Of a DNA stretch of 17,849 nt, positions 2,826 to 17,849 are shown in pieces (position 1 is the stretch's first letter; each line of letters begins with the position of its first letter). The position numbers were made by a program, and so were the translations under genes. The notes beneath the pieces are model-generated. The model was not told the DNA's origin. It ran no database searches and saw nothing but the letters and a program-made list of their open reading frames with translations. The stretch comes from a virus (lineage: Duplodnaviria > Heunggongvirae > Uroviricota > Caudoviricetes), in the IMG/VR virus record IMGVR_UViG_2541047705_000005. The stretch is one strand, 5' to 3'.

Positions 2826-2953
2826 CTGGTTGAGTATACAGTAGTAGACTTTGAGCGACGAAAGAAAAGGCTGTGTCTAGGGTCGCTCCCGAAAATCCGT
2901 ACACCTCGACGGACTGGTACAGCCACTACAGTAGAGGACGCTGAGGTGTGCGT

Positions 2954-3751: not shown

Positions 3752-3765
3752 CGCACCATACCGCA

Positions 3766-3910
3766 TACCCTGAGGGTGATTTACTGTTACCCTGAGGGTA
3801 TTTTTTTATCTTCCCCGTCAATTTTACCATCACCCTTAGGGTAGATTTCCTCCCGATTACCATCACCCTTAGGGTAGATTTCCTTCCGGTAACCATTAGG
3901 CCTGAGGGTA
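3766..3910. promoter_or_regulatory. Array of five near-palindromic ACCCT-N-AGGGT sites (3766-3777, 3789-3799, 3832-3842, 3865-3875, 3900-3909), including a 27-bp direct repeat TACCATCACCCTTAGGGTAGATTTCCT x2, upstream of alpA
   Basis: Read directly from sequence; the dyad symmetry suggests binding sites for a dimeric regulator in the alpA promoter region. Confidence 0.45.
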
Positions 3911-3978
3911 TGAAAATATTCGTTATTTCTGTGCCATGATTACCTCGTCAAATTGAGTAGACGTTATGAGGTAAATAT

Positions 3979-4176
3979 ATGTCAAATACGCTTATTCGTT
4001 TAACAGAAGTTCAGCGTAGAACTGGATATAGCAAGGCATGGATTTATCGCCTTATGGGGCAAGGTAAATTTCCTGCATCAGTTAAAATTGGCTCGCGAGC
4101 TATTGCTTTCGTTGAGAGTGAAATTGACGAGTGGATTAATCAGCGTATTGCGGAATCACGCGGAACAGCTACCTGA
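3979..4176 (+). CDS. alpA: AlpA/Vis-family prophage transcriptional regulator (small HTH protein)
   Basis: 65-aa protein MSNTLIRLTEVQRRTGYSKAWIYRLMGQGKFPASVKIGSRAIAFVESEIDEWI, the characteristic AlpA pattern; GAGGT RBS; position after int is typical for P4-like elements and Gram-negative PICIs. Confidence 0.8.
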   Translation: MSNTLIRLTEVQRRTGYSKAWIYRLMGQGKFPASVKIGSRAIAFVESEIDEWINQRIAESRGTAT

Positions 4177-4253
4177 TTAAATGGCTACGGGGCTATTGCC
4201 CCCAGCTATCCACCAGCAAATAAAAGTAACTTAATTCGATAGCAGGAGTTTTT

Positions 4254-5054
4254 ATGAAATTTCCAAAAACGCCCGTACAGGGGCGGGGCTTCGTTCGGCC
4301 TGAAAACCAGAATCTGCAAAATTTCGGCGAAATTATCCCGATTATTTCCGGCGTTATTGGCGGGAGTGAAACCACTATTGTTAGCGCCAGAGCGTTACAT
4401 AAGGCGTTAGGTGTAGGGCGCGTTTTCCGTTCGTGGATCAAGGGGCGCATTGAAGAATATGGGTTCACGGAAGGCGTGGATTATGAGGTTGTTGAATATT
4501 TGAGCCGACCCGATCCGGTGAGCGCAAAATCTCGCCAGCAAACCGCTCTTGAGTACATCATCACAGTGAACATGGCGAAAGAACTGGCGATGGTCGAACG
4601 TACCGAACAGGGCCGCGCCGTTCGCCAGTACTTTATCAAATGCGAGGAGGAGCTACACAAGGTTGCGCCTGTTCGTTCCGCAGCGTTACGCCGGGAACTG
4701 AAAGCCCGTATCACAGTTGCCAGCTACTTTAAGCCAATGTGTGCCGCGCTGGAGGCGTACCGGGCTGAACTGGGTAAAAACACACTCCAGCACCACTACA
4801 CCACGGAAGCGAACATGCTGGCGCGTATCGTGCTGGGTGGCATGACTGCAAAACAGTGGGCACTGGCGAACGGCATTACAGGCGAACCACGCGACCACAT
4901 GAGCACGTTGCAGCTTGAGCACCTTTCTTACCTTGAGCAGAGCAATATCACGCTGATTGAGTTAGGCCAGGACTACCACCAGCGGAAGGCTGAATTAATT
5001 CGTCTTTCGCAGCGTTGGTTAGCCCGTCGCATGGAGGAAAACAGCCATGTGTAA
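4254..5054 (+). CDS. Phage antirepressor-like protein (AntA/AntB-type N-terminal domain)
   Basis: 266-aa ORF; N-terminal SARALHKALGVGRVFRSWIKGRIEEYGFTEGVDYEV and later ITVNMAKELAMVERTEQGRAVRQYFIKCEEEL resemble antirepressor motifs as I recall them; AGGAG RBS 6 nt upstream. Family assignment is from memory, not a search. Confidence 0.55.
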   Translation: MKFPKTPVQGRGFVRPENQNLQNFGEIIPIISGVIGGSETTIVSARALHKALGVGRVFRSWIKGRIEEYGFTEGVDYEVVEYLSRPDPVSAKSRQQTALEYIITVNMAKELAMVERTEQGRAVRQYFIKCEEELHKVAPVRSAALRRELKARITVASYFKPMCAALEAYRAELGKNTLQHHYTTEANMLARIVLGGMTAKQWALANGITGEPRDHMSTLQLEHLSYLEQSNITLIELGQDYHQRKAELIRLSQRWLARRMEENSHV

Positions 5055-5771
5055 CGCTCTGACCGTTACAAAAAGAGAAAGCGCCCCGTTGCCGGAGCGC
5101 CTTTGTGAACGAATAGCCTACTGCGCCATATTGCTTACTGTCTACGAGGCAGATTATAGCGTTGTGGTCGCACAGAGTGAAGGCGCTGATCACCGTTACT
5201 ACAGCACGCCAGAAATGCAGAATATTTTGCTGCAAAATGTCGTTGGTCACACTGTCCGGAAAGCAAAAAATTTTGCTGGTGGCGCGACTGATGCGATTTT
5301 GTCAGGTCGCCAGGTGCTGATCAATCTGATGTCTGATTTCGTTCTGGATAAAACAAAGGCGACCGCAGAGGGCCGCCAGTGGGAAAGCTACATACTTGAA
5401 CGCATCGCCAACAATGCCAGATTTGCGGCTGGTGGGCAATGTGTCAGCTTTGCACCAATGACTCTATGTTTAACTGAGGGTCATTATGGTGAATATGCTG
5501 GCTTGCTGGTGGGCTATTCCTGCTCTTTAACATTGCCATGCCGCGATGTTTTCCAGGTATGCGACCCCATTTTTGTGCACCTGTACTCTTTAAGGAATTT
5601 CTCAAGGACAAACGCACAGGGCGCGAATCTGTCTGACTCATGCTCGTACGCTATCTTTCTGCGCTGTCTTTTCCGTGCCGGTGATGGTGTATTGGTTGAT
5701 TCTTTGTTGGTCATGGCGCTGCCCTGTAAAATAATGCACCGTAGTTCCTCACACCACGGCACCTATAGTGG

Positions 5772-6044
5772 TTATTCCTGCTCTTTAGCTTTGCGCCGCT
5801 GGAGTTCTTCACGCGCGACGGTGACGAGTTGCCCGATTTCCTCGGCAGCTTTGACTCCGATTTTTTCCACCTGCGCTAGGGCATCGAGCGAAGAAACCAG
5901 GGGATTTTCTCCGCTTCCTTCTGCCTGGCGGCGGGCGATTTCACCGCGAACGGCTGTAATCACGAAAGCGGCTATTGTTTCCCCTTCCGTTTTCGAATTT
6001 TCCATTTCCTCGATTACATCATGGGGGAAGCGGATATTTTTCAT
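5772..6044 (-). CDS. Putative ribbon-helix-helix (CopG/Arc-like) DNA-binding protein, divergent from the replication operon
   Basis: Minus-strand ORF (track 5772..6077); internal start gives MKNIRFPHDVIEEMENSKTEGETIAAFVITAVRGEIARRQ, which fits the RHH N-terminal beta-strand/helix pattern. No clear SD for either start, so the start is uncertain. Confidence 0.45.
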   Translation of the reverse strand: MKNIRFPHDVIEEMENSKTEGETIAAFVITAVRGEIARRQAEGSGENPLVSSLDALAQVEKIGVKAAEEIGQLVTVAREELQRRKAKEQE

Positions 6045-6168
6045 TTGCGATCTGCTGTTGATGTTTCCTGTTGCCATCAGAATGTCCGGTTATTTTGAGG
6101 TGTGTACACATTACACCAAAAGGTGTGTTGATAAAACACTTGACACTGTAGCACACTTAAATTTAATT

Positions 6169-6201
6169 TGTATATACACCAATTGTTGTGGTGTATATAC
6201 A
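6169..6201. promoter_or_regulatory. Perfect 12-bp inverted repeat TGTATATACACC-N9-GGTGTATATACA (candidate operator) in the divergent intergenic region; a TTGACA hexamer lies at 6140-6145
   Basis: Read directly; lies between the minus-strand RHH ORF and the plus-strand operon starting at 6268. Confidence 0.45.
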
Positions 6202-6267
6202 GCAACGCCCCGCAGTGGTGGCACACATGCAGGGCGTCTAACCAAACCGTTAAACGAGGTAACGATT

Positions 6268-6633
6268 ATGGCTGGAACACAGCATACCCAAACTCACCCT
6301 AAATTTATATACACCTTCCTGGCGGTGCACCGTGATTGCATTGCTGACGGTAAAAACACTGTACACGTAGCCGCCGATACGCTGGTTGATGCCTGCGAGA
6401 TGCTCAATGACATGGGCTATATCTCGGCAACATGGAAAGGGCGCGAAGAAAACACGCTGTTTATTCAGAAATGCGAAAACAATTTTATCTGGCGTTTTAT
6501 CGCCCTGAGTACGGCACAACCGCGCGTGATTCACATCGAGGCCACCAGCGAACAGGAAGCACGCCAGCAATCTCCTGATGGCTGCGTGATGGTATTCGCT
6601 GCCCGTATTCGCCAGGAGGTGGAGCATGTGTAA
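6268..6633 (+). CDS. Hypothetical protein (first gene of replication-module operon)
   Basis: ATG at 6268 preceded by GAGGT; it is the 3' part of the stop-free track ORF 5047..6633; the stop overlaps the next start (CATGTGTAA junction). Confidence 0.6.
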   Translation: MAGTQHTQTHPKFIYTFLAVHRDCIADGKNTVHVAADTLVDACEMLNDMGYISATWKGREENTLFIQKCENNFIWRFIALSTAQPRVIHIEATSEQEARQQSPDGCVMVFAARIRQEVEHV

Positions 6634-6850
6634 TGCAACATGGCCTGATGCAGCGGTAGACGCTATCAAAACGCTGATGGATTCACTTATTGAGATTTCT
6701 GCTATCGCTGGTGTGGCGCATAAACACGCAGCCAGAGAATCAGAATGCATCTCCCATTATTTAGCATTTGTGCAGCTGAAAGCCGATCAGGCACTGGATA
6801 AGGCCGGAAAAATTATCATGGCTGATGTACAGGAGGTGCACCATGCATAA
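6626..6850 (+). CDS. Hypothetical small protein
   Basis: 74-aa ORF, start overlaps upstream stop (translational coupling). Confidence 0.5.
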   Translation: MCNATWPDAAVDAIKTLMDSLIEISAIAGVAHKHAARESECISHYLAFVQLKADQALDKAGKIIMADVQEVHHA

Positions 6851-7208
6851 CCTGTCAATTTCTGACCTTAACAGCATTCAGTTTGACGAGATATTTTCCG
6901 GGCAGCTACTGGTCAACGTGGAGAATGGACGCGTGGTAAGTAATTATCACCTGCCGGATGGTGCAATTGCCGGAAGCGTTGAAGCATTGCTGGAGCTGGC
7001 GGAACGTGCGCGACTGATTAAGCCGTCAACGTGCCATCACGATGATGATCTGCATTTTACCGGGTGTATGGTGAGTCACTACGAAAACGGCGTTGAAGTA
7101 TCCTGCGAACGTCTGCGTGATGATTGCTGTTTCGGCACACTGCCGGAATTTATCGAATTGCTGACCAGTTGCGGTTATCAGGTCATTCAGGGGGGTAAAC
7201 ATGCGTGA
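6843..7208 (+). CDS. Hypothetical protein
   Basis: Track ORF 6825..7208; I prefer the ATG at 6843 (MHNLSISDL...) preceded by CAGGAGGT; overlaps the upstream stop by 8 nt. Confidence 0.55.
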   Translation: MHNLSISDLNSIQFDEIFSGQLLVNVENGRVVSNYHLPDGAIAGSVEALLELAERARLIKPSTCHHDDDLHFTGCMVSHYENGVEVSCERLRDDCCFGTLPEFIELLTSCGYQVIQGGKHA

Positions 7209-7434
7209 TGATCGTTTTAATTCCCTGAAACAGGAGTTTGATGGCGCACCGGAAGATACATCGGGCGCATTGTTGAGCATTGCTGACATGATGAAAGCTG
7301 CATATTTTCTTATCAATACCAGTGGCTACAAGTCAGAGGGTGAAATGATTCTTAGTATTGCGTCGGACTATGCTGAATATGTGGCAGAGACGCGTTACAG
7401 AAGAAAATCTCTGGAGGATGTAAGCCATGCATAA
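7201..7434 (+). CDS. Hypothetical small protein
   Basis: 77-aa ORF; ATG overlaps the upstream TGA. Confidence 0.5.
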   Translation: MRDDRFNSLKQEFDGAPEDTSGALLSIADMMKAAYFLINTSGYKSEGEMILSIASDYAEYVAETRYRRKSLEDVSHA

Positions 7435-7627
7435 TCATGAAGCGCATGTACCCGTAGTGCTTAATGTGCCAGATGATTTCACCGGACGCGTGCTGGTTTA
7501 CCTGGATAAAGGGAAAGTGAAATCACAATGCCGACTGAAAAGTAATGAGATTGTTGGTTCTCCTGAATTTTTTTCTGAACTTTGTATTCGTGCGGAAATA
7601 AAACCGGAACTGCTGACAGGAAAATAA
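7427..7627 (+). CDS. Hypothetical small protein
   Basis: 66-aa ORF; GGAGG 9 nt upstream; overlaps the upstream stop. Confidence 0.5.
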   Translation: MHNHEAHVPVVLNVPDDFTGRVLVYLDKGKVKSQCRLKSNEIVGSPEFFSELCIRAEIKPELLTGK

Positions 7628-7631
7628 AACC

Positions 7632-7922
7632 ATGAAAAAGAAAAATTCTGGCTTTACTGCCAGCGGCCTCTCTCGGCCTGAAATCCGCCCCGGTGATATT
7701 TTCCGGGACACCAGACGCGGGGGACGGGTGGTTATTCGTCACGTTACGCCAGGCAATATCACCTACCGCCGTGAGGCTTACGAATATGACTGCGTAATGC
7801 CGCGCCGTCAGTTTGAGCGTGATTTTATTCTGGTGGAAAACAAACAACAGGCAGTGGCGAGACGTGCAGCCACGAATATTAAAAAAATCCGGGCAATGTT
7901 GGTTGCGGGAGGTAAGAAGTGA
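7632..7922 (+). CDS. Hypothetical small basic protein
   Basis: 96-aa ORF; its stop overlaps the GTG start of the primase-like gene. Confidence 0.5.
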   Translation: MKKKNSGFTASGLSRPEIRPGDIFRDTRRGGRVVIRHVTPGNITYRREAYEYDCVMPRRQFERDFILVENKQQAVARRAATNIKKIRAMLVAGGKK

Positions 7923-9724
7923 AAAACGCACCGAATTTAAAATATCAGCCGAAGGATAAATTCACCGAGGTAATCATTTTTGCCGGGACGGATGCTTACG
8001 CCCATGCTCAACACTGGATTGAAAGCGAAGGACGAAAACACGGCGATAACGTGCCTCCTGTTTACCTGGGGCCAAAGCAACTGGCAGACCTGGCGAATAT
8101 CCGCATTGTCGACGATGAACGTCGCTTTGCGCGTGTCTATCTCGCGGGGGAGATAGAGCCAATCCAGATCAATGCTATTGCTGAAAAGCTGGCGCTGGCT
8201 GGTGTACAGGACGCGAAATTATACAAAGGTATCACCGACCGGGAGCCGGAAAACTGGCGCGACTACCTGCAACGGATCCGCGAACAGGCAGAGAGTGGGG
8301 AAGTTTCAGCGATGAAATTAGCCACAAAAAATATTGACCTATCCAGGCCAGCACTAAATCAGATGGGAGCCAGCCAGAGAGGGGAAGTGTTACTTGAATA
8401 TTATGGAAGAGCACTGGCTATAAATGATGATTCTGATGTAGTTCACCATTACAACGGAATTGTCTGGGTGCCTGTATCTGATAAGGAACTCCAGCGGTCT
8501 ATGGCGAAGATTTTTATTGATGCTGGAATCAGTTATTCGCAAAACGCCATTAAATTTGCCGTAGACACAATGAAATTGAGCCTGCCTGTTATGGGCGGGG
8601 CAGACAGGAATCTTATTGGATTCAGTAACGGGGTATTTGATACCCGGACGGGAAATTTTCGGGAGCATAACAAAAATGACTGGTTGTTAAATGCCAGTGA
8701 ATTACCGTTCAGCCCACCAGCAGAGGGGGAAACGCTGGCAACACATGCGCCGAATTTCTGGAAGTGGCTGCGTCGTTCGGTGGCAGATAATGAGCGTAAA
8801 GCTGATCGCGTACTGGCGGCATTATTCATGGTACTGGCGAACCGGTACGACTGGCAGTTATTCCTTGAGGTAACAGGCCCAGGCGGAAGCGGTAAAAGTG
8901 TGATGGCTGAGATTTGTACCATGCTGGCGGGTAAGGCCAACACAGTATCGGCAAGCATGAAGGCTCTGGAAGACGCAAGGGAACGCGCGTTAGTAGTTGG
9001 CTTTTCGCTGATTATCATGCCGGATATGACTCGCTACGCTGGCGATGGTGCAGGAATTAAGGCAATTACTGGCGGCGACAAGGTGGCAATTGATCCGAAA
9101 CATAAAGCCCCCTACTCCACACGTATTCCGGCAGTAGTGCTTGCGGTAAACAATAACGCCATGTCATTCAGTGACCGAAGCGGGGGGATCTCGCGTCGTA
9201 GGGTGATATTTAATTTCTCTGAGGTCGTACCGGAGAACGAACGCGATCCCATGCTGGCGGAAAAGATAGAAGGCGAACTGGCGGTAGTGATTCGCCATTT
9301 GCTAACACGATTTACCGACCAGGACGAAGCTAAAAGACTACTTTATGAGCAGCAAAAATCAGAAGAAGCGCTGTTGATAAAGCGCGAAGGTGATTCACTG
9401 GTGGACTTTTGCGGCTATCTGATGTCGTTGGTTAAATGTGAAGGAATGATGGTGGGCAATGCGGAAATAGTGCCATTTAGCCCGAGGCGATACCTGTATC
9501 ATGCTTATTTAGCCTATATGTCAGCGCATGGCCTGGGAAAACCAGTATCACTGACACGCTTTGGTACTGATATGCCAGGAGCTATGGCGGAATACGGAAA
9601 GGAGTATAAGCGGGCTAAATGCACTAAAGGCCCGGATAAAGGGCGAGTGATAACAAATGTTCTGTTAGATGATGATGCTGATGGCTGGTTGCCAGCAGCT
9701 ACAGGGATTAACGACAGAACATAA
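7919..9724 (+). CDS. Primase/helicase-like replication initiator (P4-alpha / D5-type NTPase family)
   Basis: 601-aa ORF, GTG start after GGGAGGT; Walker A P-loop LEVTGPGGSGKSVMAEI in the C-terminal half; last gene of a coupled operon and followed immediately by an iteron array, as expected for satellite pri/rep genes. Confidence 0.75.
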   Translation: MKNAPNLKYQPKDKFTEVIIFAGTDAYAHAQHWIESEGRKHGDNVPPVYLGPKQLADLANIRIVDDERRFARVYLAGEIEPIQINAIAEKLALAGVQDAKLYKGITDREPENWRDYLQRIREQAESGEVSAMKLATKNIDLSRPALNQMGASQRGEVLLEYYGRALAINDDSDVVHHYNGIVWVPVSDKELQRSMAKIFIDAGISYSQNAIKFAVDTMKLSLPVMGGADRNLIGFSNGVFDTRTGNFREHNKNDWLLNASELPFSPPAEGETLATHAPNFWKWLRRSVADNERKADRVLAALFMVLANRYDWQLFLEVTGPGGSGKSVMAEICTMLAGKANTVSASMKALEDARERALVVGFSLIIMPDMTRYAGDGAGIKAITGGDKVAIDPKHKAPYSTRIPAVVLAVNNNAMSFSDRSGGISRRRVIFNFSEVVPENERDPMLAEKIEGELAVVIRHLLTRFTDQDEAKRLLYEQQKSEEALLIKREGDSLVDFCGYLMSLVKCEGMMVGNAEIVPFSPRRYLYHAYLAYMSAHGLGKPVSLTRFGTDMPGAMAEYGKEYKRAKCTKGPDKGRVITNVLLDDDADGWLPAATGINDRT

Positions 9725-9751
9725 TACGAAATTTATAAGCTGAAACGTAAA

Positions 9752-10090
9752 GGTAGACGGTTGGTAGACAGATTCACTTAACCCTCTACCAACCATCTAC
9801 CAATTAATATTTTGAATTATAAAGATATTTTCAATGTGGTAGAGAGGTAGACAGTTATTTCTATATTCCTACACCACGGGGGGTATATAAAAAACAGATA
9901 GTTAAGGGGGCATTTTTTAAATTTCTCTTTTAACTGTCTACACTGTCTACCATTTAGTAAAAATCATTAATTATCAATGTATTAATGCGGTAGACCGTTG
10001 GTAGACAGTTTGCAGATTGTTTTTTTGTTATGTGTTAATAACATTAAATAAATCAATCAATTATATCGGTAGACAGTTGGTAGACAGTTG
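9752..10090. repeat. Iteron array: six copies of a ~20-bp unit GGTAGAC-N3-4-GGTAGACAG in both orientations (9752-9773, 9784-9801 inv, 9838-9856, 9933-9951 inv, 9989-10010, 10068-10090) separated by AT-rich spacers; putative replication origin
   Basis: Read directly; iterons plus AT-rich spacers immediately downstream of the primase/helicase-like gene match origin architecture of P4-like satellites and PICIs. Confidence 0.5.
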
Positions 10091-10095
10091 TAACG

Positions 10096-10638
10096 ATGGG
10101 GCAAAGCATGACTAAGCTGACCATTAACAGAAAACCAAAAGGTATTTACGGCACGCCGCAGAAAACGACGCAGGCGGCGCAGCAGCAGGATAAAACCACA
10201 TCGGCGCATAAAGTGATGCCCGGTAACCAGAAAGCGCAGCAGAAGCCCACAGGGGCAACACCGTGGCGGCATATGACCAAACGGCAGCGAAAAAACCGCA
10301 GACGCGTTAACCGCCTCACTGAGTTGTGGCCTGAATTATTCAGCCGGGAAGCACCGAAGCCGCTTAAGGTGGGGATATTCGACGACCTGATGCAGGATCT
10401 CGCCGTCAGGGGGCTGGCATTCGGGCCAGGGGCATTGCGTGCGACGCTGGCATCTTATGCGCAGTGTCCGCGCTATTACCGCGCCTTAATGGCTGGTGGG
10501 GTACGCTACGACCTGAAATGCCAGCCGTGCGGCGAGGTGACACCACAGGAACAACAGGACGCAGAAACGCGGCTGGTTGCGCTGAATGAGAAACGCAAAC
10601 GTCAGCGTCGGGCAGCAAAGGAGAAAACAGGCGCATGA
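10096..10638 (+). CDS. FinO/ProQ-domain RNA-binding protein (RNA chaperone-like)
   Basis: 180 aa; PLKVGIFDDLMQDL...LRATLASYAQCPRYYRAL...GVRYDLKCQPCGEV parallels the ProQ N-terminal domain (PLKIGIFQDL...LRSALRLYTSSWRYL...RVDLDGNPCGEL) as I recall it; start could be 10096 or 10108. Confidence 0.75.
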   Translation: MGQSMTKLTINRKPKGIYGTPQKTTQAAQQQDKTTSAHKVMPGNQKAQQKPTGATPWRHMTKRQRKNRRRVNRLTELWPELFSREAPKPLKVGIFDDLMQDLAVRGLAFGPGALRATLASYAQCPRYYRALMAGGVRYDLKCQPCGEVTPQEQQDAETRLVALNEKRKRQRRAAKEKTGA

Positions 10639-10922
10639 TTCACGACAGCAAAGCGGAAGCTCTGGAAGCGCGTGGTCTGTACCGGAGAGCGGCGGCGCGG
10701 TGGGCTGAGGTCATCATGCTGGCGAATGATGACAAGGCACGGGAGCAGGCGGCAAAACGTCGCGCGGAATGTATCCACAAGGCAGCACGCCCACCAGCAA
10801 GGCAGGATAATTTCGGGGAGATGCGCAAAACCATCAGCCGGGCACATGCCGGGATGGGATTACATCAGCCCAATGGTGAGGCATTCAGGAAATACCAAAA
10901 AAAGAACAATTGTAGTCAGTAA
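10635..10922 (+). CDS. PerC-family transcriptional regulator-like protein
   Basis: 95 aa; N-terminus KAEALEARGLYRRAAARWAEVIM matches my recollection of the PerC-family signature; ATGA overlap with the FinO/ProQ gene. Family call is from memory. Confidence 0.5.
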   Translation: MIHDSKAEALEARGLYRRAAARWAEVIMLANDDKAREQAAKRRAECIHKAARPPARQDNFGEMRKTISRAHAGMGLHQPNGEAFRKYQKKNNCSQ

Positions 10923-11056
10923 CAGAGGATGGGATTCTCTTGGTTTTTTGTTGATGCTTTCTGAGGAAATCTACTACGTTGCTGAGCAGATGAATATTCA
11001 ATTGCATCTGGGTTCCTGATAAGATTAATCTGAATATTTTCATTTGGAATAGGGAT

Positions 11057-12199
11057 ATGAATAAAACTTTAATTGCAACATTAGTCGGTATAGTAATGTT
11101 AACCGGATGTGGGCCAGAAGAGTTAACTCCAGAACAGAAACAGGAAGTAGCGGCTCTTAAAGCTGAACTGTCGCAAACGGAAGGTGAAATATCAGCAGCT
11201 AAGGAAGTTGACCAGCAGTTTTCTGGTGGGTTGATAAAAAATCTGACAACAGCAAGACTGGAAATATTAGGAACTAATAAAGCGCTTTTGGAACAGCGTA
11301 TTAATGCTATTGAATCAGGCGCCAAAATTGATGTTGTTGTATCTGGAGTAAAACCTGATCCTGAGCTTGCTGCTTCAATTAAAACTGAAATTGACAGCTT
11401 AGATGCAAAAATCAACGAAGCCAAAGCTGATGCTCGTCAGTATAGTGGTGGTCTGATAAAGGTACTAAAATTATCTACTGTTGCCACTGAAGAGCAGACT
11501 ATGGCAATGTTGCAGCAAAAGTACCTCACAGCCAAGTATGGCCTCGCTGAAGTTAAGCTGGCATCAGTACAAGATAATGACGCAAAAAACAGTACTGAAA
11601 CGGAAGTAACAGCCAAAAATTCCCAAGATCAACTTCCTTTACTCCCGCCAGCGGATGGTCCGTTTGGCTTAGAAGCCGGTCTTACACAGAAAAACATCGA
11701 AGATATGATCGGTGCTAAGCTCAAGCCACTACCAGACAGTGTGAATCTGTATACTTCTGATAAATTACCGAAGCAAAACGCAGATTTTGAAATGTATGGT
11801 TTGTTGATCTCCCCGAAAGCTGGTTTATGTCAAATACGGGCTTTAGGAAAAAATATTGATACTGATAGCTATGGATTGGCTCTTAAATCCAAGTTTGAAG
11901 AATTGAGTAATTCTTTAAGTTCTCTGTATGGAAAGGCTGATACTACAGACTTTTTGCTGGCTGGTTCAATTTGGAAAGATCCTCAGGACTGGATGAGGGG
12001 GCTAAACAAAAAAGAACGCTTCTTATCTGCCACATGGAAGGGAACAAAAGAAATACCATTAAAAAACAATATTGATACTATCTCTATTGAGGCCAGAGCG
12101 AACAATTCCACTCAGGGATATGTCTATCTGCAGTACTCATTTACAAATGACGAAATTTGTCAGGCAGAAATTGAAGGGGCGAAAAAAAGTTCCCTTTAA
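11057..12199 (+). CDS. Predicted lipoprotein (signal peptide with lipobox LTGC), function unknown
   Basis: 380 aa; N-terminal MNKTLIATLVGIVMLTGCGPEE; the mature region has repeated coiled-coil-like segments (ARLEILGTNKALLEQRINAIESGAKIDVV / ...IDSLDAKINEAKADARQYSGGLIKVLK). Confidence 0.7.
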   Translation: MNKTLIATLVGIVMLTGCGPEELTPEQKQEVAALKAELSQTEGEISAAKEVDQQFSGGLIKNLTTARLEILGTNKALLEQRINAIESGAKIDVVVSGVKPDPELAASIKTEIDSLDAKINEAKADARQYSGGLIKVLKLSTVATEEQTMAMLQQKYLTAKYGLAEVKLASVQDNDAKNSTETEVTAKNSQDQLPLLPPADGPFGLEAGLTQKNIEDMIGAKLKPLPDSVNLYTSDKLPKQNADFEMYGLLISPKAGLCQIRALGKNIDTDSYGLALKSKFEELSNSLSSLYGKADTTDFLLAGSIWKDPQDWMRGLNKKERFLSATWKGTKEIPLKNNIDTISIEARANNSTQGYVYLQYSFTNDEICQAEIEGAKKSSL

Positions 12200-12211
12200 A
12201 CAATCCGTGCA

Positions 12212-12238
12212 AAGCCCCTTAGTAAGGGGCTTTTATAT
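12212..12238 (+). terminator. Rho-independent terminator after the lipoprotein gene
   Basis: AAGCCCCTT-AGT-AAGGGGCTT perfect 9-bp stem followed by a T-rich tract (TTATATATT). Confidence 0.55.
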
Positions 12239-12262
12239 ATTAATGTCCAACGGGGGGATTAG

Positions 12263-12586
12263 ATGAAAGATAATCTAGAAAAACTAATTGAAAATACTTT
12301 AAAAGATATTCTATTAGCTAATGCTGCTCTAACATTCATTTTTGCAATACCAATGGCTATTATCAGTAGGCATGGGATGGGCATCACAATCTGGTTTATA
12401 ACTGTGCTCATTGCACCTGCTCTGTGTGCAGTAGGTGCATGGCTTGTATCTCGAACATTCGGCCATGCTGAGGAGTTCTTTCATCGTCGGTGGGCTAAGC
12501 GAATTTATGTTTTTTATACTCTTGCGGCTGCCGAGTTTTTGCTTGTGTACTCAATCGCGCAAATAATGAAAAATCTGATGAAATAA
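12263..12586 (+). CDS. Small integral membrane protein (two to three predicted TM helices), function unknown
   Basis: 107 aa with hydrophobic segments ALTFIFAIPMAIISRHGMGITIWFITVLIAPALCAVGAWLV; GGGGGGA RBS. Confidence 0.6.
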   Translation: MKDNLEKLIENTLKDILLANAALTFIFAIPMAIISRHGMGITIWFITVLIAPALCAVGAWLVSRTFGHAEEFFHRRWAKRIYVFYTLAAAEFLLVYSIAQIMKNLMK

Positions 12587-12775
12587 TTAACAAGTTATTA
12601 TCATGGGGTTTGTGGCTGTTAACCTGCAGTGAGGCGACAATCGTGTATTTATAAAAACTTCCCCTTTTCACTCCCCGCTGTTTCTTCTGCTATTGCCTTT
12701 ATGTTTGCATGCACCAACATCTGCCATACCTTTGCAGAAAAATCAGAGCATTCAGTGCCGAAGGTTGGTTTATTG

Positions 12776-12868
12776 ATGCTTTTCGTTTCATTTATTGCAA
12801 TTGTCTCTGGTATCATTTCAATTTGTGCAATAATTGCAATTATTGTCATTCAGAAGGGATCATCATGA
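12776..12868 (+). CDS. Possible 30-aa hydrophobic peptide (MLFVSFIAIVSGIISICAIIAIIVIQKGSS)
   Basis: In-frame ATG inside track ORF 12629..12868; single TM-like helix; its TGA overlaps the next ATG (ATGA). Weak SD; speculative. Confidence 0.3.
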   Translation: MLFVSFIAIVSGIISICAIIAIIVIQKGSS

Positions 12869-13032
12869 AAAATCACGGAGTAAAGCCAGTTTTACTTTCC
12901 CGGAGGCAGATCGAAGCCCTGCAACGCATCCAGGACGAAGAGCGTCAGAAATCTGTGCTTGGTGTGGCACCGTCGATTCATGTTACTGCCCGGCAACTGA
13001 TGGATAAGGCACTTAAAGAGGTGAGGCTGTGA
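12865..13032 (+). CDS. Small 55-aa protein (MKNHGVKPVLLSRRQIEALQRIQDEERQKSVLGVAPSIHVTARQLMDKALKEVRL)
   Basis: 3' part of track ORF 12709..13032; ATG at 12865 preceded by AGAAGGGA; stop overlaps the GTG start of the next gene. Confidence 0.45.
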   Translation: MKNHGVKPVLLSRRQIEALQRIQDEERQKSVLGVAPSIHVTARQLMDKALKEVRL

Positions 13033-13301
13033 AATTAAATATCAGAGTGGATAAACGCCAGCTATGGCAGAAAAAAGAGAACAGCGAGGCATTCAGGGCT
13101 TTGCTGGTGGAAAATCTTCGGCACCGGTTCAGTGGAGAGTTGCCAGATGCACTGGGGAAGAAACTGGAATCCCTGACAGTGGAAATTGGCGATTATGGCT
13201 TTGTTGATGTTGAAAGCACGACTGCCAACACAGAAATCGTAAAACAGGTCGTCAATGATGTAATGAAAACCACGCTTAGCCAGCCATCCTGGCGCAACTG
13301 A
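13029..13301 (+). CDS. Hypothetical 90-aa protein
   Basis: ORF-track ORF with GTG start overlapping the upstream TGA (GTGA); followed by a hairpin. Confidence 0.5.
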   Translation: MKLNIRVDKRQLWQKKENSEAFRALLVENLRHRFSGELPDALGKKLESLTVEIGDYGFVDVESTTANTEIVKQVVNDVMKTTLSQPSWRN

Positions 13302-13309
13302 ATCAGTAA

Positions 13310-13330
13310 GGGGCGGTTATTGCCCCTTTC
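13310..13330 (+). terminator. Terminator-like hairpin (GGGGC-N7-GCCCC followed by TTTCCTCC)
   Basis: Read directly; T-tract is weak. Confidence 0.3.
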
Positions 13331-13400
13331 CTCCATACCCACAACGCATTCCCTTTCCGCATGAAATTATTTTTTATCGTATATGCATGAGGTGAGCTAC

Positions 13401-13928
13401 ATGTTGATGAGTAAAGCCGAATACGCCAAATACAAAGGCGTAAGCCGCCAGACAGTTTACGACTGGCTCGAGAAAGGCGAAGTGGTCATGTCCGGTAAAA
13501 AAATTGATGTGGAAGCGACAGAGCAGCGGAACAGCCCACCAGCACAGGGGAAAGACACCATTTCTGAAATGTGGCCAGAAAGAACGCTGGAAATGACATG
13601 GGGCGAGTTCTGGAAAGCAGTTAAGGCCAGAGACGGTAAAATTCCTGCGCCAGTAACGGACGAGGGCATACAGCAGCATGTGCTGTATGCAGCCGGGGAA
13701 TTAGGCTGGGAAGTGCACTTTCTTGATGATGGTGCTATCTGTCTTGAGGATGATGAAGGGCAGCATTACTTTGAAAAATACAATTTGCGAGGTAATGCCA
13801 GGCTGGCAATTCGTATGCTGCGTTGCGAACTCTGCTATGTTGCCAGCGATTGTCCCGATGAACAGGACACATGGAGTGAGGCAGGACTAAACGCCTTGGC
13901 TGAATGGGAAAAATCAGGCCATCAATGA
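13401..13928 (+). CDS. HTH DNA-binding protein with Nu1/TerS-like N-terminal pattern; candidate packaging-redirection (Rpp-like) or regulatory protein
   Basis: Track ORF 13383..13928; I prefer the ATG at 13401, 7 nt after GAGGTGA. N-terminal MLMSKAEYAKYKGVSRQTVYDWLEKGEV resembles the lambda Nu1 wHTH pattern (KKQLADIFGASIRTIQNWQEQG) in spacing of conserved positions; followed by a dense repeat array. Confidence 0.55.
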   Translation: MLMSKAEYAKYKGVSRQTVYDWLEKGEVVMSGKKIDVEATEQRNSPPAQGKDTISEMWPERTLEMTWGEFWKAVKARDGKIPAPVTDEGIQQHVLYAAGELGWEVHFLDDGAICLEDDEGQHYFEKYNLRGNARLAIRMLRCELCYVASDCPDEQDTWSEAGLNALAEWEKSGHQ

Positions 13929-13933
13929 CCTCA

Positions 13934-14190
13934 AAAAGTGTCAAGTTGAGCAGTTTGCCAGGTTGACACTTTACACTCTGAACGCGAAAAAGTGTCAACC
14001 TCGCTGGATGCCTCGCCATTACTGGCCTTGTACCATATTCACCACGTCAAAAAACCGAAAAAATAGCGAAAAGTGTCAAGTTGCCATGCTTAGAAATGCT
14101 AAGGTTTGATAAGGTTTTTCGCGAAAAAGTGTCAAGTGTGTCAACCTGCGGTATTAAGATTTATTAAGGTCTTAAGCCGGAAAGTGTCAA
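13934..14190. repeat. Array of seven GTGTCAA core repeats (six direct, one inverted; consensus CGAAAAAGTGTCAAC) plus TAAGATTT-N-TAAGGT repeats; candidate packaging (cos/pac-proximal) or regulator binding region
   Basis: Core copies at 13938-13944, 13963-13969 (inverted), 13992-13998, 14073-14079, 14129-14135, 14138-14144, 14184-14190; read directly. Confidence 0.5.
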
Positions 14191-14221
14191 CCAGCCCCTA
14201 AGATTTCCTAAGGTGTAAATC

Positions 14222-14401
14222 ATGACCATCACCGAAGCCGATATGCTGGAGATGCTCCGCAGCATTGCCGAAATCAAACAACCAGCAAGCAAAATTAACA
14301 GGTGTTCAGCGCCTGTTTCCGTTGTGCTGCAACAGGAACGCCACCAGCATGATGATGTGAGGCCGTATCAGTGGAAGAAACCGGACAGGCTGCGGCGATA
14401 A
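14222..14401 (+). CDS. Possible 59-aa protein (MTITEADMLEMLRSIAEIKQPASKINRCSAPVSVVLQQERHQHDDVRPYQWKKPDRLRR), absent from ORF track
   Basis: ATG at 14222 is 6 nt downstream of TAAGGTG; ORF is 60 codons, presumably just below the track's length cutoff. Confidence 0.35.
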   Translation: MTITEADMLEMLRSIAEIKQPASKINRCSAPVSVVLQQERHQHDDVRPYQWKKPDRLRR

Positions 14402-14750: not shown

Positions 14751-15977
14751 ATGATTGCAGGCGCGAAAAGAGGGAGAAACGAACGCAAGGGGCTTCACTC
14801 TTGGCATCCATACTATGCGGGCTATTCAGAGTCATTTGTGGCTTCTGTTTTGCAGGCTGAAGGAGTTAAGTCGTCCGCTACCGTTCTTGATCCTTGGATG
14901 GGAAGCGGTACCACTGGTATAGTTTGTCAAAAGCAAACCATAAAGTGTATTGGAGCAGATATTAATCCTGTAATGAGCTATTTTGCTGCAGCCAAAAGTA
15001 GGGATAATATTTCAGCGCTGGATTATACCGGAGAGCAACTCCTGGAAAGGATACTGCTTTGCTTTAGAAAAAAAACAAAAGATATAACTGAGTCATCGAA
15101 GGGCTATCCACTTATTGAACAGTTACAAAAGTTTTATAAATGTATCTGTGATCAGTTTATGGATAAAGGACAAAATGATATCGTAAATCCTTTAAAAGCA
15201 TTTTATTGCAGTGTTTTATTTTATACTGTTCGCAATGTCCTTGATGTTAGGTCAACTTCAAATCCTACATGGATTTCTAAAAAAGTAGACTTTAATAATA
15301 AATTTGATATTTGTTTTGAATATAATAAAAATTTTAAAATTATGCGTGAGCAGTTAAGTGAATATTATGGCAGCGCTAATGGGGGGGCATGTTACTCGAT
15401 TTTAAACGTGGATAGTAAAAAATTAAATATTAAAAGTAACACAATTGATCTTGTTATTACATCGCCACCGTATTTAACACGAATAGACTATGCCGTTTCT
15501 ACTCGTCTTGAGTTGGAAATAATTTTAGGGAGTGAGGGATATAAGTCTCTTAGAAAGGAAATGATGGGCACGACGACTGTGCCTAAAGTTGCGGATGAAA
15601 TTAATAAAAAATGGGGGCCATTGTGTATGGATGTTTTGTCATCGGTAACATCGCATACATCAAGAGCATCTGGAAGTTATTACCTTAAAAATAAAATTAG
15701 ATATTTTTCTGATGCGTATGAGTCATTAATGGAAATCTTTAGAGTTTTAAAGGTAGGTTGCTCTGGTTATTTTGTAATACAAAATTCATATTATAAGGAA
15801 ATAGAGATTCCGCTTTATGATATTTATTGTGAAATGGCGCTTTCTATTGGGTTTTCAGAAGCGAAATGTGTGAGAGAAGATCAAGTTAAAGCAATATTTG
15901 GACAAATAAATACCAAGTCAAAAAATTATATTAAAGATAAAGTTTATTTTGAAAAAATCATAAGGATAACAAAATGA
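14751..15977 (+). CDS. DNA methyltransferase (amino-methyltransferase: N4-cytosine or N6-adenine), motif I before motif IV
   Basis: 408 aa; SAM-binding motif I VLDPWMGSGTTG (14889-14918) and catalytic motif IV SPPY in DLVITSPPYLTRIDYA (15462-15473); AT-rich codon usage; stop overlaps next start (ATGA). Confidence 0.8.
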   Translation: MIAGAKRGRNERKGLHSWHPYYAGYSESFVASVLQAEGVKSSATVLDPWMGSGTTGIVCQKQTIKCIGADINPVMSYFAAAKSRDNISALDYTGEQLLERILLCFRKKTKDITESSKGYPLIEQLQKFYKCICDQFMDKGQNDIVNPLKAFYCSVLFYTVRNVLDVRSTSNPTWISKKVDFNNKFDICFEYNKNFKIMREQLSEYYGSANGGACYSILNVDSKKLNIKSNTIDLVITSPPYLTRIDYAVSTRLELEIILGSEGYKSLRKEMMGTTTVPKVADEINKKWGPLCMDVLSSVTSHTSRASGSYYLKNKIRYFSDAYESLMEIFRVLKVGCSGYFVIQNSYYKEIEIPLYDIYCEMALSIGFSEAKCVREDQVKAIFGQINTKSKNYIKDKVYFEKIIRITK

Positions 15978-17086
15978 ATGACGTAACTAAATTGCTATCT
16001 CAGATAGATGAAAAAAGAGATGAGGTAGTAACTGATTCTTATACCATATCATGGCGTGAAGTAATTAATCTATATAAAGAAAATGAGATAACCATTTCTC
16101 CAGACTACCAAAGGCTTTTTCGTTGGGATAACGCAAGACAAAGCCAATTTATCGAGTCATTACTTTTAAATATACCTACGCCAACACTTTTTTTCTACAT
16201 TGATAATAATGGTAAGCAGGAGGTTATCGATGGATTGCAACGTGTGAGTACTATAATTAGATTTTTTTCAGAGGATATTTTTAATAAGGAAGAAATAGAT
16301 AATGCAAAGAAACAAAACTCTGTAAATGATGTCCGTAATCCAACTGTTCTTGATGATGTGCCTATAATTACAGAATTAAATGGATGGACTGCAAAAGGAT
16401 TGCCGGACAAAGTTAGCCGAACTATAAAAAATGCGCGAGTAAATGTTGTTATTTTGGAGCAAGAAACAAAACCTGAAACTAAATATAATGTTTTTAAACG
16501 ACTGAATAGGTCTGGTGTTCGTTTGAGTGACCAGGAAATACGTAATTGCATGGCTAGATTAGCAGGGAATGAATTTGCAGATCGCTTACGTAAGATGGCC
16601 GAAATTGATGGTATTGTTCAAGCTCTTGGAATAAATGAAGATGGCCAAAAATCTCAAGGTGTTGAGGAAGCTTTGCTACGAGTTATGGCATCTTTGACTT
16701 ATGCGGATAAATTTAGCCATAGTGTAACTGACTTTTTGGATGAATTTATGTTCTACGCGGCAGAACATAATGTTATTGATATTAATTTTGAATTAAAAAT
16801 AAAAAGAACTTTTGATTTGATAAATATTGCTGGTTTATCTGGTAAAGCATTTAAATTTAGAAAGGATGGTGCTCCAAGTGGCCCGTTTAGTACTAATTTA
16901 TTAGATGTTGTTGCTGTTGGTATTTTTAGTAATGTAGATAATTTAACACCTGCTGAGGTGGCGAAAAGATTTGATTATTTAATGGATGGTGAGATCAAAG
17001 AATTAAGAGCTTGTACTGGTTCTGGATCTAATACTAAAGCCAAATTAGAGAAAAGAATCGCTCTTGGGAAGAAGGTGTTTGGATAA
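15974..17086 (+). CDS. DUF262 (ParB/Srx-like NTPase domain) protein, stand-alone (no DUF1524/HNH domain evident)
   Basis: 370 aa; N-terminal signature PDYQRLFRW...IESLLLNIPTPTLFF...VIDGLQRVSTII (DGQQR-type motif, 16229-16243); AAGGA RBS; translationally coupled to the methyltransferase. Confidence 0.8.
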   Translation: MNDVTKLLSQIDEKRDEVVTDSYTISWREVINLYKENEITISPDYQRLFRWDNARQSQFIESLLLNIPTPTLFFYIDNNGKQEVIDGLQRVSTIIRFFSEDIFNKEEIDNAKKQNSVNDVRNPTVLDDVPIITELNGWTAKGLPDKVSRTIKNARVNVVILEQETKPETKYNVFKRLNRSGVRLSDQEIRNCMARLAGNEFADRLRKMAEIDGIVQALGINEDGQKSQGVEEALLRVMASLTYADKFSHSVTDFLDEFMFYAAEHNVIDINFELKIKRTFDLINIAGLSGKAFKFRKDGAPSGPFSTNLLDVVAVGIFSNVDNLTPAEVAKRFDYLMDGEIKELRACTGSGSNTKAKLEKRIALGKKVFG

Positions 17087-17087
17087 A

Positions 17088-17849
17088 ATGAGAATATCAG
17101 ATTTCGATGATTTCAAGGTGATGTTGGAAAAGACGAAAAATGAAAGTCTTGGATTCCTTGAGAGCATAAAGTCTATTAATGAGTTTATGTCGAGATCAGG
17201 TGATAAAGACAAGGAGGATATGTTTAGAATAATATCGGTCCCAATGATTTATTCTTCTTGGGAGGGTTTTTTTACTGAAACAATGTCAGTTTGCTTAAAT
17301 ACATTGAAACTCTCAGATAGAGAAGCATTTAGATACTCTGCAGAAATTCGAGCACTTTGGTTGCAACGAGAACCATTTTATAGCAAGTATGTAGATATGA
17401 TAAAAAATATTTATGATGCTGACTCACACCGAAGCATTGTCCATAATGGCGCCCAAATAAAAAAGAAAGTTACGAAGGGGGCGTTTAAACTAACAAGTGA
17501 GGTAATTCAACACATTGACAGGTTTAATAAATCCACATTATCAGATTGCGATGTTTCTGAATTAGTTATGACATTTTCCAATGTGAATGAAATGGTTGTC
17601 AAGGTGAATTTCGATGCTATAGGTTTGGATTATTCATTACTTGATTTATCGCAACTAGGTGAGGTTGTTGGCCTTAGAAATTCTTTGGGACATGGGGAGT
17701 TTAAAAGTAGTGTTAACCCTAGGAAATTTAATTCAATAATTGTGTATGTGGAAAATCTGATCATCGATTTGAATCAATGTGCTATAACGTGGTTGGATAA
17801 ATTAGAAGATGAAATAACTAAGCCTGAAGATAATGAGACTATTCAGTGA
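17088..17849 (+). CDS. Predicted all-alpha protein with C-terminal Rx4H motif (LRNSLGHGEF); putative HEPN-domain RNase effector
   Basis: Track ORF 17064..17849 uses a TTG; I prefer the ATG at 17088, 10 nt after GAAGGTG. R-N-S-L-G-H at 17676-17693 fits the HEPN Rx4-6H motif; stop TGA is the last codon of the window. The HEPN call rests on motif and composition only. Confidence 0.5.
   Translation: MRISDFDDFKVMLEKTKNESLGFLESIKSINEFMSRSGDKDKEDMFRIISVPMIYSSWEGFFTETMSVCLNTLKLSDREAFRYSAEIRALWLQREPFYSKYVDMIKNIYDADSHRSIVHNGAQIKKKVTKGAFKLTSEVIQHIDRFNKSTLSDCDVSELVMTFSNVNEMVVKVNFDAIGLDYSLLDLSQLGEVVGLRNSLGHGEFKSSVNPRKFNSIIVYVENLIIDLNQCAITWLDKLEDEITKPEDNETIQ

Follow-up and report, generated by a model that had tools for sequence, protein, structure and literature searches.

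The lipoprotein cassette

The DNA analyzed here (the window, 17,849 nucleotides, IMG/VR virus record IMGVR_UViG_2541047705_000005) is an E. coli chromosomal island inserted at tRNA-Thr(CGU) (thrW), downstream of proA. Judged by its genes, the island is a phage satellite of the PICI (phage-inducible chromosomal island) type. Positions 10000-14000, the 4 kb searched in this way, were 100% identical in strains PD23, GF4 and E189. Downstream of the PerC gene the island carries a gene encoding a 380-residue lipoprotein, followed by a gene encoding a 107-residue protein with three predicted transmembrane segments. An earlier note, made from the letters of the sequence, had described this pair as envelope-localized cargo and had suggested superinfection exclusion or receptor masking as its usual role. 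The open reading frames, the lipobox and the strong terminator between the two genes were all found as that note had described them, and the features of the cassette are as follows.

10937-12784, plus strand: cargo cassette with two parts, the lipoprotein unit and the gene of the 107-residue membrane protein; E. coli ABU 83972 has 17 bp at this place in its collinear island
11017-11025, plus strand: promoter-like element of the extended -10 type, TGATAAGAT (at most homologous loci TGnTAGGAT), 32 nt before the ATG
11020-11033, plus strand: palindromic operator-like site TAAGATTAATCTGA, overlapping the -10 element, an exact fit to the RcsB-box consensus TN(G/A)GAN4TC(T/C)NA
11050-11055, plus strand: Shine-Dalgarno region TAGGGA, within a block GGGAT(A/T)AGGGATATG conserved at the same loci
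11057-11110, plus strand: signal peptide II and lipobox, residues 1-18 (Cys18 codon 11108-11110)
11111-11566, plus strand: N-terminal stalk, residues 19-170, a unit of one antiparallel coiled-coil hairpin and one short strand that occurs twice, the turn SGGL(I/V) being conserved
11567-11644, plus strand: variable linker, residues 171-196, of unconserved alignment columns, with a conserved PLLPP at its end
11645-12199, plus strand: C-terminal globular head, residues 197-380, starting with GPFGL, and the stop codon
12211-12238, plus strand: intrinsic terminator of the lipoprotein unit, AAAGCCCCTTAGTAAGGGGCTTT plus a T-run, with a 10-bp stem
12263-12586, plus strand: 107-residue protein, three predicted transmembrane segments (hydrophobic at residues about 15-36, 40-64 and 81-101)

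The limits of the cassette were given by a BLASTN comparison of positions 10000-14400 with the ABU 83972 island (locus L013). Homology stopped at 10936 and restarted at 12785, with 93-94% identity before and after, such that the ABU 83972 island has 17 bp where the window holds 1,848 bp. The GC content of the cassette was 39-42% versus 52-54% in the ProQ/PerC flank (10001-11000). The cassette is inserted immediately 3' of the PerC gene and its terminator, and its left edge was assigned to that terminator because the homology break at 10936/10937 falls within the PerC hairpin. A hairpin followed by a T-run is found after PerC in both islands, although the two differ in sequence (AGAGGATGGGATTCTCTTGGTTTTTT in the window, 10923-10950, and GGGGCCGGGATTTTTCCCGGCC in ABU 83972, L013 6776-6800). 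In a third island, that of ARS-C101 (L014 7030-8563), a NUDIX hydrolase and a DUF2213 protein are encoded between PerC and the TerS-like gene. This swap indicates that the stretch is a second variable cargo slot of the satellite family, in addition to the 3' end.

Morons are accessory gene units inserted in phage-type elements. The cassette has the presence/absence polymorphism of such a unit, being missing from the collinear ABU 83972 island, and also has a terminator, a deviant GC content and, as read from sequence, a promoter of its own. Hence, the cassette very probably holds an autonomous moron.

The right edge of the cassette lies within a short and very hydrophobic reading frame (12629-12868, ...MLFVSFIAIVSGIISICAIIAIIVIQKGSS) having an ATGA overlap with the start of a conserved 55-residue gene (12865-13032). 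The hydrophobic stretch that precedes the 55-residue gene is retained in ABU 83972 (L013 6790-6890), the cassette boundary at 12784/12785 being just upstream. The frame may encode a small membrane peptide coupled to the 55-residue gene; RefSeq has a minus-strand open reading frame there instead.

The lipoprotein has a stalk and a head

The lipoprotein open reading frame (11057-12199, plus strand) begins with MNKTLIATLVGIVMLTGC and has the lipobox L-T-G-C at residues 15-18, which gives Cys18 as the predicted lipidation site with Gly at +2 and Pro at +3. Residues G17, C18, G19 and P20 were invariant in an alignment of 26 homologues, and the N-terminus has the pattern predicted for a substrate of Lgt and LspA (a positively charged n-region, a hydrophobic h-region and a lipobox [LVI][ASTVI][GAS]C). 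In E. coli the signal for retention in the inner membrane is Asp at +2, and lipoproteins that lack this residue are exported to the outer membrane by the Lol system. As Asp is absent from +2, the rule-based prediction for this protein is the outer membrane.

Within the N-terminal domain, residues ~31-81 align to residues ~105-155, each copy containing Q(F/Y)SGGLIK. The BLOSUM62 local score of this alignment was 76 compared with 27.4 +/- 4.9 for 500 shuffles (z = 9.8), and AlphaFold2 modeled one helical hairpin per repeat (helices 25-54 and 59-87 in the first, 102-126 and 133-161 in the second). The coiled-coil-like segments reported earlier are therefore a true internal repeat. Searches of PDB sequences with the protein and with a profile of each domain returned designed antiparallel coiled coils for the stalk and nothing else; those matched by the N-domain profile were single-chain designs.

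The alignment of the 26 homologues (60-100% identity) gave two highly conserved blocks separated by a variable segment at ~171-196. The full-length AlphaFold2 model was mediocre (pLDDT 68), with pLDDT <50 at residues 163-198. A model of the head made from 44 diverse sequences was of much higher quality, an alpha/beta domain of 185 residues with pLDDT 96.8 and pTM 0.90, in which an antiparallel beta-sheet packs on helices. Cys258 and Cys368 of the head were invariant in the 26-homologue alignment. Across the wider head family two Gly, a Tyr, an Arg and a Trp are invariant, none of them of catalytic type, and this set argues for a binding-type rather than a catalytic signature. We are highly confident of this anatomy of lipobox, two-hairpin stalk, linker and head.

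Putative transcription signals of the lipoprotein gene

The sequence TGnTAGGAT(T/A)AATCC(G)A is found at -40 to -24 from the ATG in satellites, in a myovirus prophage and at chromosomal copies of the gene, and the sequences further upstream are unrelated. The spacing of TGn plus TA(G/A)GAT to the start codon is constant in nearly all loci having an upstream element, the Tatumella loci L030 and L075 being one base longer.

The operator-like site overlapping the -10 element was compared with the structure-derived RcsB consensus TN(G/A)GAN4TC(T/C)NA (PMC7913699). TAAGATTAATCTGA is the single match to this consensus in the 17.8-kb window, where 0.86 matches would be expected by chance per window and ~0.006 for the 134-bp intergenic region. 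An exact match was present at -36 to -39 in 14 of 20 distinct genome loci versus 0.003 expected per 60 nt, loci that share ancestry and thus are not independent. The box is also present in the satellite clade of 64% identity. All of its substitutions fall on N, R or Y positions. As changes are seen only at degenerate positions while synonymous sites of the coding sequence are saturated (dS>1), the element seems to be under selection. A consensus match near a putative promoter is what a gene of the RcsB regulon would be expected to have, and in the study cited for the consensus (PMC7913699) repression is the outcome mostly linked to boxes located at the transcription start or beyond it. Rcs control of the lipoprotein gene is plausible on these grounds, but we regard it as somewhat less than probable.

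At the other end of the unit, the 70 nt following the stop codon had a folding energy of -19.5 kcal/mol, and a GC-rich hairpin with a T-run lies just past the stop codon in most of the 12 homologous loci examined.

Relatives of the lipoprotein and of its head

The lipoprotein has 320 homologues of 60-100% identity across the Enterobacterales. These, together with pairwise dN/dS values of 0.05-0.12, establish the open reading frame as a real gene rather than a chance frame. A profile search of 1.84 billion representative proteins gave 2,863 clusters (50% identity) at E<=0.001. Many members of this family are ~200 residues long and consist of a signal peptide, cleaved directly before GPFGL, and the head alone, whereas others are lipoproteins of 170-320 residues that have the stalk alone or the stalk joined to another C-terminal part; those with the stalk alone are 170-230 residues long. 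As stalk and head occur separately, we consider the two domains to be independent modules. A Pfam scan of 20 members having extra regions found only one VasI domain (PF11319, E 4e-9, on a stalk protein) and one GYF_2 domain (on a head-containing protein).

Neither the lipoprotein nor the 107-residue protein matched a family above threshold in Pfam, NCBIfam, PHROGs or PADLOC, and neither matched a defense family of PADLOC-DB v2 at E<=0.1. At E<=1 in Pfam, the lipoprotein matched LTXXQ alone (13-15.5 bits versus a cut-off of 24.3), with no Bor or TraT match, and PHROGs gave nothing below E 0.03. The NCBIfam matches were all sub-threshold: LpoB (TIGR02722) at 17.4 bits versus 110.6 and Lpp (PRK15396) at 13.2 versus 108. 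Hence, the CpxP/Spy LTXXQ, Lpp and LpoB families were not reached at their cut-offs, and no similarity to Cor, Llp, Bor/Iss or TraT was found by sequence, profile or fold. The earlier note had named homology to a housekeeping lipoprotein family as the outcome that would count against its proposal, and these below-threshold scores for LpoB, Lpp and LTXXQ were as close as the searches came. Its remark that no motif supports a specific function likewise agrees with the Pfam, PHROG, NCBIfam, PADLOC and PDB results.

The profile and structure searches that it had asked for gave no known family, and the remote structural relatives of the head were lipoproteins of temperate phages. With Foldseek, the full-length model had no match in the PDB and the head had none at E<0.01 (best E 0.012, TM score <=0.42). 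The sole convincing structural relative of the head was A0A5Q2F5G3, a 182-residue lipoprotein of the temperate Erwinia phage Midgardsormr38 (Foldseek E 5.9e-7, probability 1.0), which superimposed with TM scores of 0.61-0.63 over 177 columns at 16% identity; further phage proteins of ~190 residues ranked next. The paper describing Midgardsormr38 does not mention the lipoprotein (PMC7317114), and a literature search with the RefSeq protein accession of the window lipoprotein gave no paper. The lipoprotein is a new architectural form of moron-encoded envelope lipoprotein, drawn from a large uncharacterized family.

The same data could be read in terms of an inhibitor or immunity protein. The tethered head would then bind and neutralize a periplasm-acting toxin or enzyme (lysozyme, a phage tail-associated lysin, a domain of a colicin or bacteriocin, or a peptidoglycan hydrolase or lipase of a type VI secretion system (T6SS)) and the cassette would be a mobile 'orphan immunity' gene. 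A periplasmic lipoprotein with a binding-type head lacking catalytic invariants would suit this role, the VasI domain to which the stalk is fused in one relative is T6SS-associated, and a stand-alone secreted head found across phyla is typical of lysozyme inhibitors and immunity proteins. The weak fold neighbors include proteins of envelope-binding or immunity type (DcrB, the PsbP/Mog1 class, Tsi3, Tli5 (PA3488) and the SciW chaperone), but at TM scores <=0.42 none of them is close enough for the resemblance to be relied on. Ivy and MliC, two lysozyme inhibitors of E. coli, are under Rcs-linked regulation, which the RcsB-like box recalls. However, these inhibitors are induced, whereas the position of the box predicts repression. 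Moreover, no toxin or T6SS gene was seen beside any copy examined. Overall, we judge an immunity function to be quite unlikely.

Distribution and selection

Among 5,426 complete E. coli genomes, 307 matched the surrounding 4-kb region (at least its ProQ/PerC part) and 112 carried the lipoprotein gene, all at >=99% identity. Given these numbers, the gene is accessory in E. coli and has spread recently. Carriers include O104:H4 strain C227-11, enterotoxigenic E. coli (ETEC) O169:H41 and avian pathogenic E. coli (APEC) O78. IS903B lies within the gene in E. coli PCP06102, and alleles truncated at the 5' side, starting from gene position 279, are present in several E. coli (e.g., FDAARGOS_1300, APEC E19019 and AH20K059).

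The gene occupies diverse elements. Satellites of the window type, with ProQ/PerC upstream and the three-segment membrane protein gene downstream, were found in Escherichia ruysiae and in 17 IMG/VR contigs. In satellites with a DUF927 primase (Enterobacter, Klebsiella, Lonsdalea and Pantoea septica) the gene lies downstream of the replicase. It accompanies lambda-like tail modules in Xenorhabdus, Proteus mirabilis and Ca. Pantoea gossypiicola, and in Enterobacter bugandensis it is at the end of a myovirus prophage, after a tail-fibre assembly gene. Other copies are in thrW-linked remnants and on plasmids (a 175-kb Enterobacter plasmid and an Aeromonas plasmid), and altogether 51 IMG/VR viral contigs carry the gene. 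In Enterobacter hormaechei (L005) two related satellites (integrase, AlpA, Bro/Ash, DUF927 primase) are arranged in tandem at 1653-13845 and 14352-21140, the second integrase beginning ~500 bp past the end of the first satellite, which is the carrier of the lipoprotein gene.

Nei-Gojobori dN/dS ratios were low in the stalk (0.02-0.12) and the head (0.04-0.12) and higher in the linker (0.1-0.7), where purifying selection is relaxed, and dS was >1 even for lipoproteins of 88% identity. By these measures the gene is old, functional and tightly constrained. A reading as a pseudogene or hitchhiker was rejected (dN/dS ~0.05-0.1).

Strong purifying selection over a long time, with the old divergence that dS >1 at 88% protein identity implies, would also be expected of an outer-membrane lipoprotein that serves host fitness or envelope homeostasis and has no relation to phages. 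Such a protein could act in serum or complement resistance (in the manner of Bor, Iss and TraT), stress tolerance, spacing or tethering of peptidoglycan and outer membrane, or colonization, and mobile elements would keep it for the advantage that it gives the bacterium. The pathogenic carriers named above, the copies at isolated chromosomal sites and the putative host envelope-stress-type operator upstream would be in keeping with this role, and the combination of stalk and head recalls the periplasm-spanning Lpp and LpoB, albeit with NCBIfam matches far under the cut-offs. However, only 2% of E. coli genomes have the gene, no family-level similarity to Bor, TraT, Lpp or LpoA/B was detected, and repeated capture by satellites and phage tail modules is more typical of phage-related morons. 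We therefore consider a general envelope fitness factor rather unlikely.

The downstream three-segment membrane protein

The 107-residue protein is rare, with only 17 clusters known. Wherever checked (K. pneumoniae, a second genome assembly and the window-type satellites) its gene is directly 3' of that of the 380-residue lipoprotein, and it travels only with the closest lipoprotein alleles. Direct examination of the Enterobacter (L002) and Pantoea (L006) loci showed that the gene is absent beside the lipoprotein gene, and it was undetected in other distant clades. A Pantoea neighbor, also of 107 residues, was rejected as a homologue because BLASTP gave no alignment. As the lipoprotein mostly lacks this partner, we take the lipoprotein to be the core of the cargo and the three-segment protein to be an occasional passenger or accessory. 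In loci L015-L018 (L015 being from K. pneumoniae and L018 from Edwardsiella tarda) the cargo downstream of the pair varies (a KAP-family NTPase, an ORC/CDC6-like protein or a SEFIR-domain fragment), and in these loci the pair sometimes adjoins CP4-6-like genes (KlcA antirestriction, RadC, CbtA/CbeA).

A coiled-coil outer-membrane lipoprotein next to a protein of ~105 residues with three transmembrane segments, the size of a class-I holin, bears a superficial likeness to a satellite lysis or release module in which the lipoprotein would be spanin-like and its neighbor holin-like. Several observations make this very improbable: the lipoprotein occurs without the membrane protein in most lineages, a strong terminator separates the two genes, the lipoprotein has neither the C-terminal transmembrane segment of a unimolecular spanin nor an Rz-like partner, and no endolysin was found among the scanned window proteins or in the RefSeq annotation. 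In addition, neither protein matched a holin or spanin in Pfam or PHROGs, and a putative constitutive sigma-70 promoter and stand-alone chromosomal copies are unlike a late lysis function. The spanin/holin pair was therefore rejected, the intervening terminator, the missing endolysin and the usually solitary lipoprotein being the grounds.

A proposed function in the envelope

The reading that we favor is that of an envelope moron that protects its carrier. In the quiescent satellite the lipoprotein gene would be transcribed by host sigma-70 RNA polymerase, as are lysogenic-conversion genes. The gene would be on by default and its transcription probably lowered when the Rcs envelope-stress relay is active, repression being suggested by the overlap of the RcsB-type box with the core promoter. 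The Lol pathway would sort the protein to the inner leaflet of the outer membrane, an anchoring expected from Gly at +2, and the stalk and flexible linker would project the head some way into the periplasm, where it would bind a conserved target rather than catalyze a reaction. The lipoprotein is probably such an outer-membrane-anchored periplasmic binder.

The most likely benefit would be that the carrier cell is shielded from something entering via the envelope, and our first choice is that a superinfecting phage is excluded when it adsorbs or when its DNA enters, with Cor, Llp and HK97 gp15 as the analogues. We rank this first because of the precedent of these proteins, the location of the gene in tail modules and satellites, the phage lipoproteins that are structural relatives of the head, and the nearby defense cargo. 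Such cargo on the same satellites comprises methyltransferase, DUF262 and HEPN genes in the window, and KAP NTPase, ORC/CDC6-like and SEFIR genes elsewhere. Even so, phage exclusion as the function of the lipoprotein is doubtful, and the entire chain, with the functional guess included, is put forward as tentative. Of the earlier proposal, the part concerning envelope-localized cargo is strengthened by the 1.85-kb indel, the AT-rich composition, the promoter-like element and terminator of the unit, and its recurrence in satellites and prophages that are unrelated. The suggested role, superinfection exclusion or receptor masking, stays at the level of a prior, the protein being without similarity to Cor, Llp, Bor, TraT, PADLOC or PHROG families.

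A number of results weigh against phage exclusion by an envelope moron as outlined here. No function has direct evidence behind it, and no known exclusion or defense protein was matched. The model of the N-terminal domain has only moderate confidence (pLDDT 60-80), a generic promoter scan called no promoter at the lipoprotein gene, the -35 element being poor, and both the promoter and the RcsB site are deduced from sequence only. A tblastn search of 50,697 deposited phage genomes found no copy of the lipoprotein, and some enterobacterial copies, in Rouxiella and Pantoea, are at isolated chromosomal sites. Proteins locked in a direct arms race with those of phages do not usually have an omega as low as ~0.05, though masking of a conserved host receptor would be consistent with such a value. 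The same allele is present on elements that depend on different phage types and so is not matched to the receptor of one phage. Finally, the stand-alone secreted head protein is widespread in distant phyla in non-enteric and non-mobile contexts, sometimes among housekeeping genes (e.g., between gatA and secDF in one Acidobacteriota genome), which suggests a general periplasmic role. The neighborhoods of these head proteins were heterogeneous and uninformative for guilt by association. It is these distant heads, together with the extreme sequence constraint, that keep the non-phage readings alive.

A bolder version of the phage-exclusion proposal can be formulated. The lipoprotein would be the founding member of a large unrecognized two-module family, in which a lipid-anchored double-hairpin stalk carries interchangeable heads, spread by satellites and temperate phages of several morphotypes as a broad Rcs-controlled envelope shield. 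It would then represent a new class of superinfection-exclusion or periplasmic immunity factor whose head fold lacks any solved relative. Anchored in the outer membrane, it would reach through the periplasm and act on a step that is conserved in phage DNA entry or in toxin action. We offer this as speculation and think it improbable in this full form.

The satellite and its other genes

By the published criteria (PMC10085698), a PICI lacks structural and lysis genes and has, in a conserved order, an integrase, an AlpA-type regulator, a primase-replicase and a TerS-like protein. The integrase, alpA, primase-replicase and terS-like genes were all found in the window, a classification by gene content alone, and no capsid, tail or lysis genes were seen there. 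The genes are arranged as follows.

1369-1444: tRNA-Thr
1611-2825: integrase
3979-4176: AlpA
4254-5054: AntA, then an Icd-like gene and a DUF4222 protein
7919-9724: D5-type primase/helicase (D5_N/DUF5906/Pox_D5 replicase)
10096-10638: ProQ/FinO
10635-10922: PerC, followed by the lipoprotein and three-segment membrane protein genes and then two small genes
13383-13928: TerS-like helix-turn-helix protein (terS phrog_57 match, E 2e-6)
14751-15977, 15974-17086 and from ~17088: methyltransferase, DUF262 and HEPN genes at the 3' end

The 3' cargo of the satellite (14751-17849) resembles a defense module, with a type II-like DNA methyltransferase, a DUF262 protein that matched NsnA (1e-55) and PD-T4-2_A (1e-41) in PADLOC, and a HEPN protein of the RiboL-PSP/MAE_28990 type at the 3' end of the window. 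The GC content of this stretch is 31-35%, far under that of the rest of the island. Mechanical translation of positions 5047-6633 gives a 528-residue open reading frame where RefSeq has two small minus-strand genes (one of the YlcI/YnfO family) and the Icd-like gene; the long frame is probably a spurious extension of the Icd-like frame. The AT skew is strongly negative at 5501-6000.

Significance and comparison with known systems

Satellites and prophages are seen mainly as carriers of cytoplasmic defense, and their envelope-level cargo is much less catalogued, with only a handful of exclusion lipoproteins (Cor and Llp) characterized. The lipoprotein gene described here is intact and constrained, is found on two satellite lineages and in both siphoviral and myoviral prophages, and is present in epidemic E. 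coli O104:H4. It belongs to a family of ~2,860 clusters having neither a Pfam entry nor a solved structure. Were the protein to block phage entry or neutralize a periplasmic toxin, envelope-level immunity would gain a protein class that is both new and widespread, of relevance to the prediction of host range in phage therapy. The conserved RcsB-type operator would in turn exemplify mobile cargo wired into a host envelope-stress circuit. If the protein is instead a general envelope fitness factor, the cassette is an ordinary moron of limited interest.

Among proteins that combine a lipid anchor with reach into the periplasm, Lpp and LpoB resemble the window lipoprotein in that a spacer, elongated or flexible, separates the N-terminal anchor from the functional part at the far end, so that a protein held in the outer membrane can act deeper in the periplasm. 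The stalk consists of hairpins rather than the parallel trimer or disordered linker of these proteins, and the head is unrelated. The Mog1/PsbP-like proteins (DcrB, LpqN and CyanoP), several of which are bacterial envelope proteins or lipoproteins, are the best PDB neighbors of the head, but at TM scores of 0.30-0.42 and E >=0.03 neither homology nor a shared fold can be claimed. Midgardsormr38 A0A5Q2F5G3 is closer, being a temperate-phage lipoprotein related to the head, although it lacks a stalk domain.

The envelope proteins Cor, Llp, Bor and HK97 gp15 are all products of morons. Like lambda Bor/Iss and plasmid TraT, the window lipoprotein would be outer-membrane cargo of a mobile element that is expressed in the resident state to the benefit of the host, but it differs from them in size and architecture and had no corresponding Pfam match at E<=1. 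The unit resembles HK97 gp15 and the lambdoid morons in being an independent set of promoter, gene and terminator placed between conserved genes, with deviant GC content and patchy distribution. HK97 gp15 is a small inner-membrane protein, whereas the moron of the window encodes a large lipoprotein, resides in a satellite and is common to satellites and siphoviral and myoviral prophages. Cor and Llp, which block FhuA, have a single domain and are small, at roughly 60-80 residues. The window lipoprotein, with its 380 residues, two-hairpin stalk and novel head, has no sequence, profile or fold similarity to either. Nevertheless, Cor (phi80, N15, HK022) and Llp (T5) are lipoproteins encoded by accessory genes of phage-type elements that are expressed in the carrier and act in the envelope, as the sequence of the window lipoprotein suggests it does, and Cor-type genes lie in or near tail modules, as does the lipoprotein gene in the Xenorhabdus, Proteus and Pantoea prophages.

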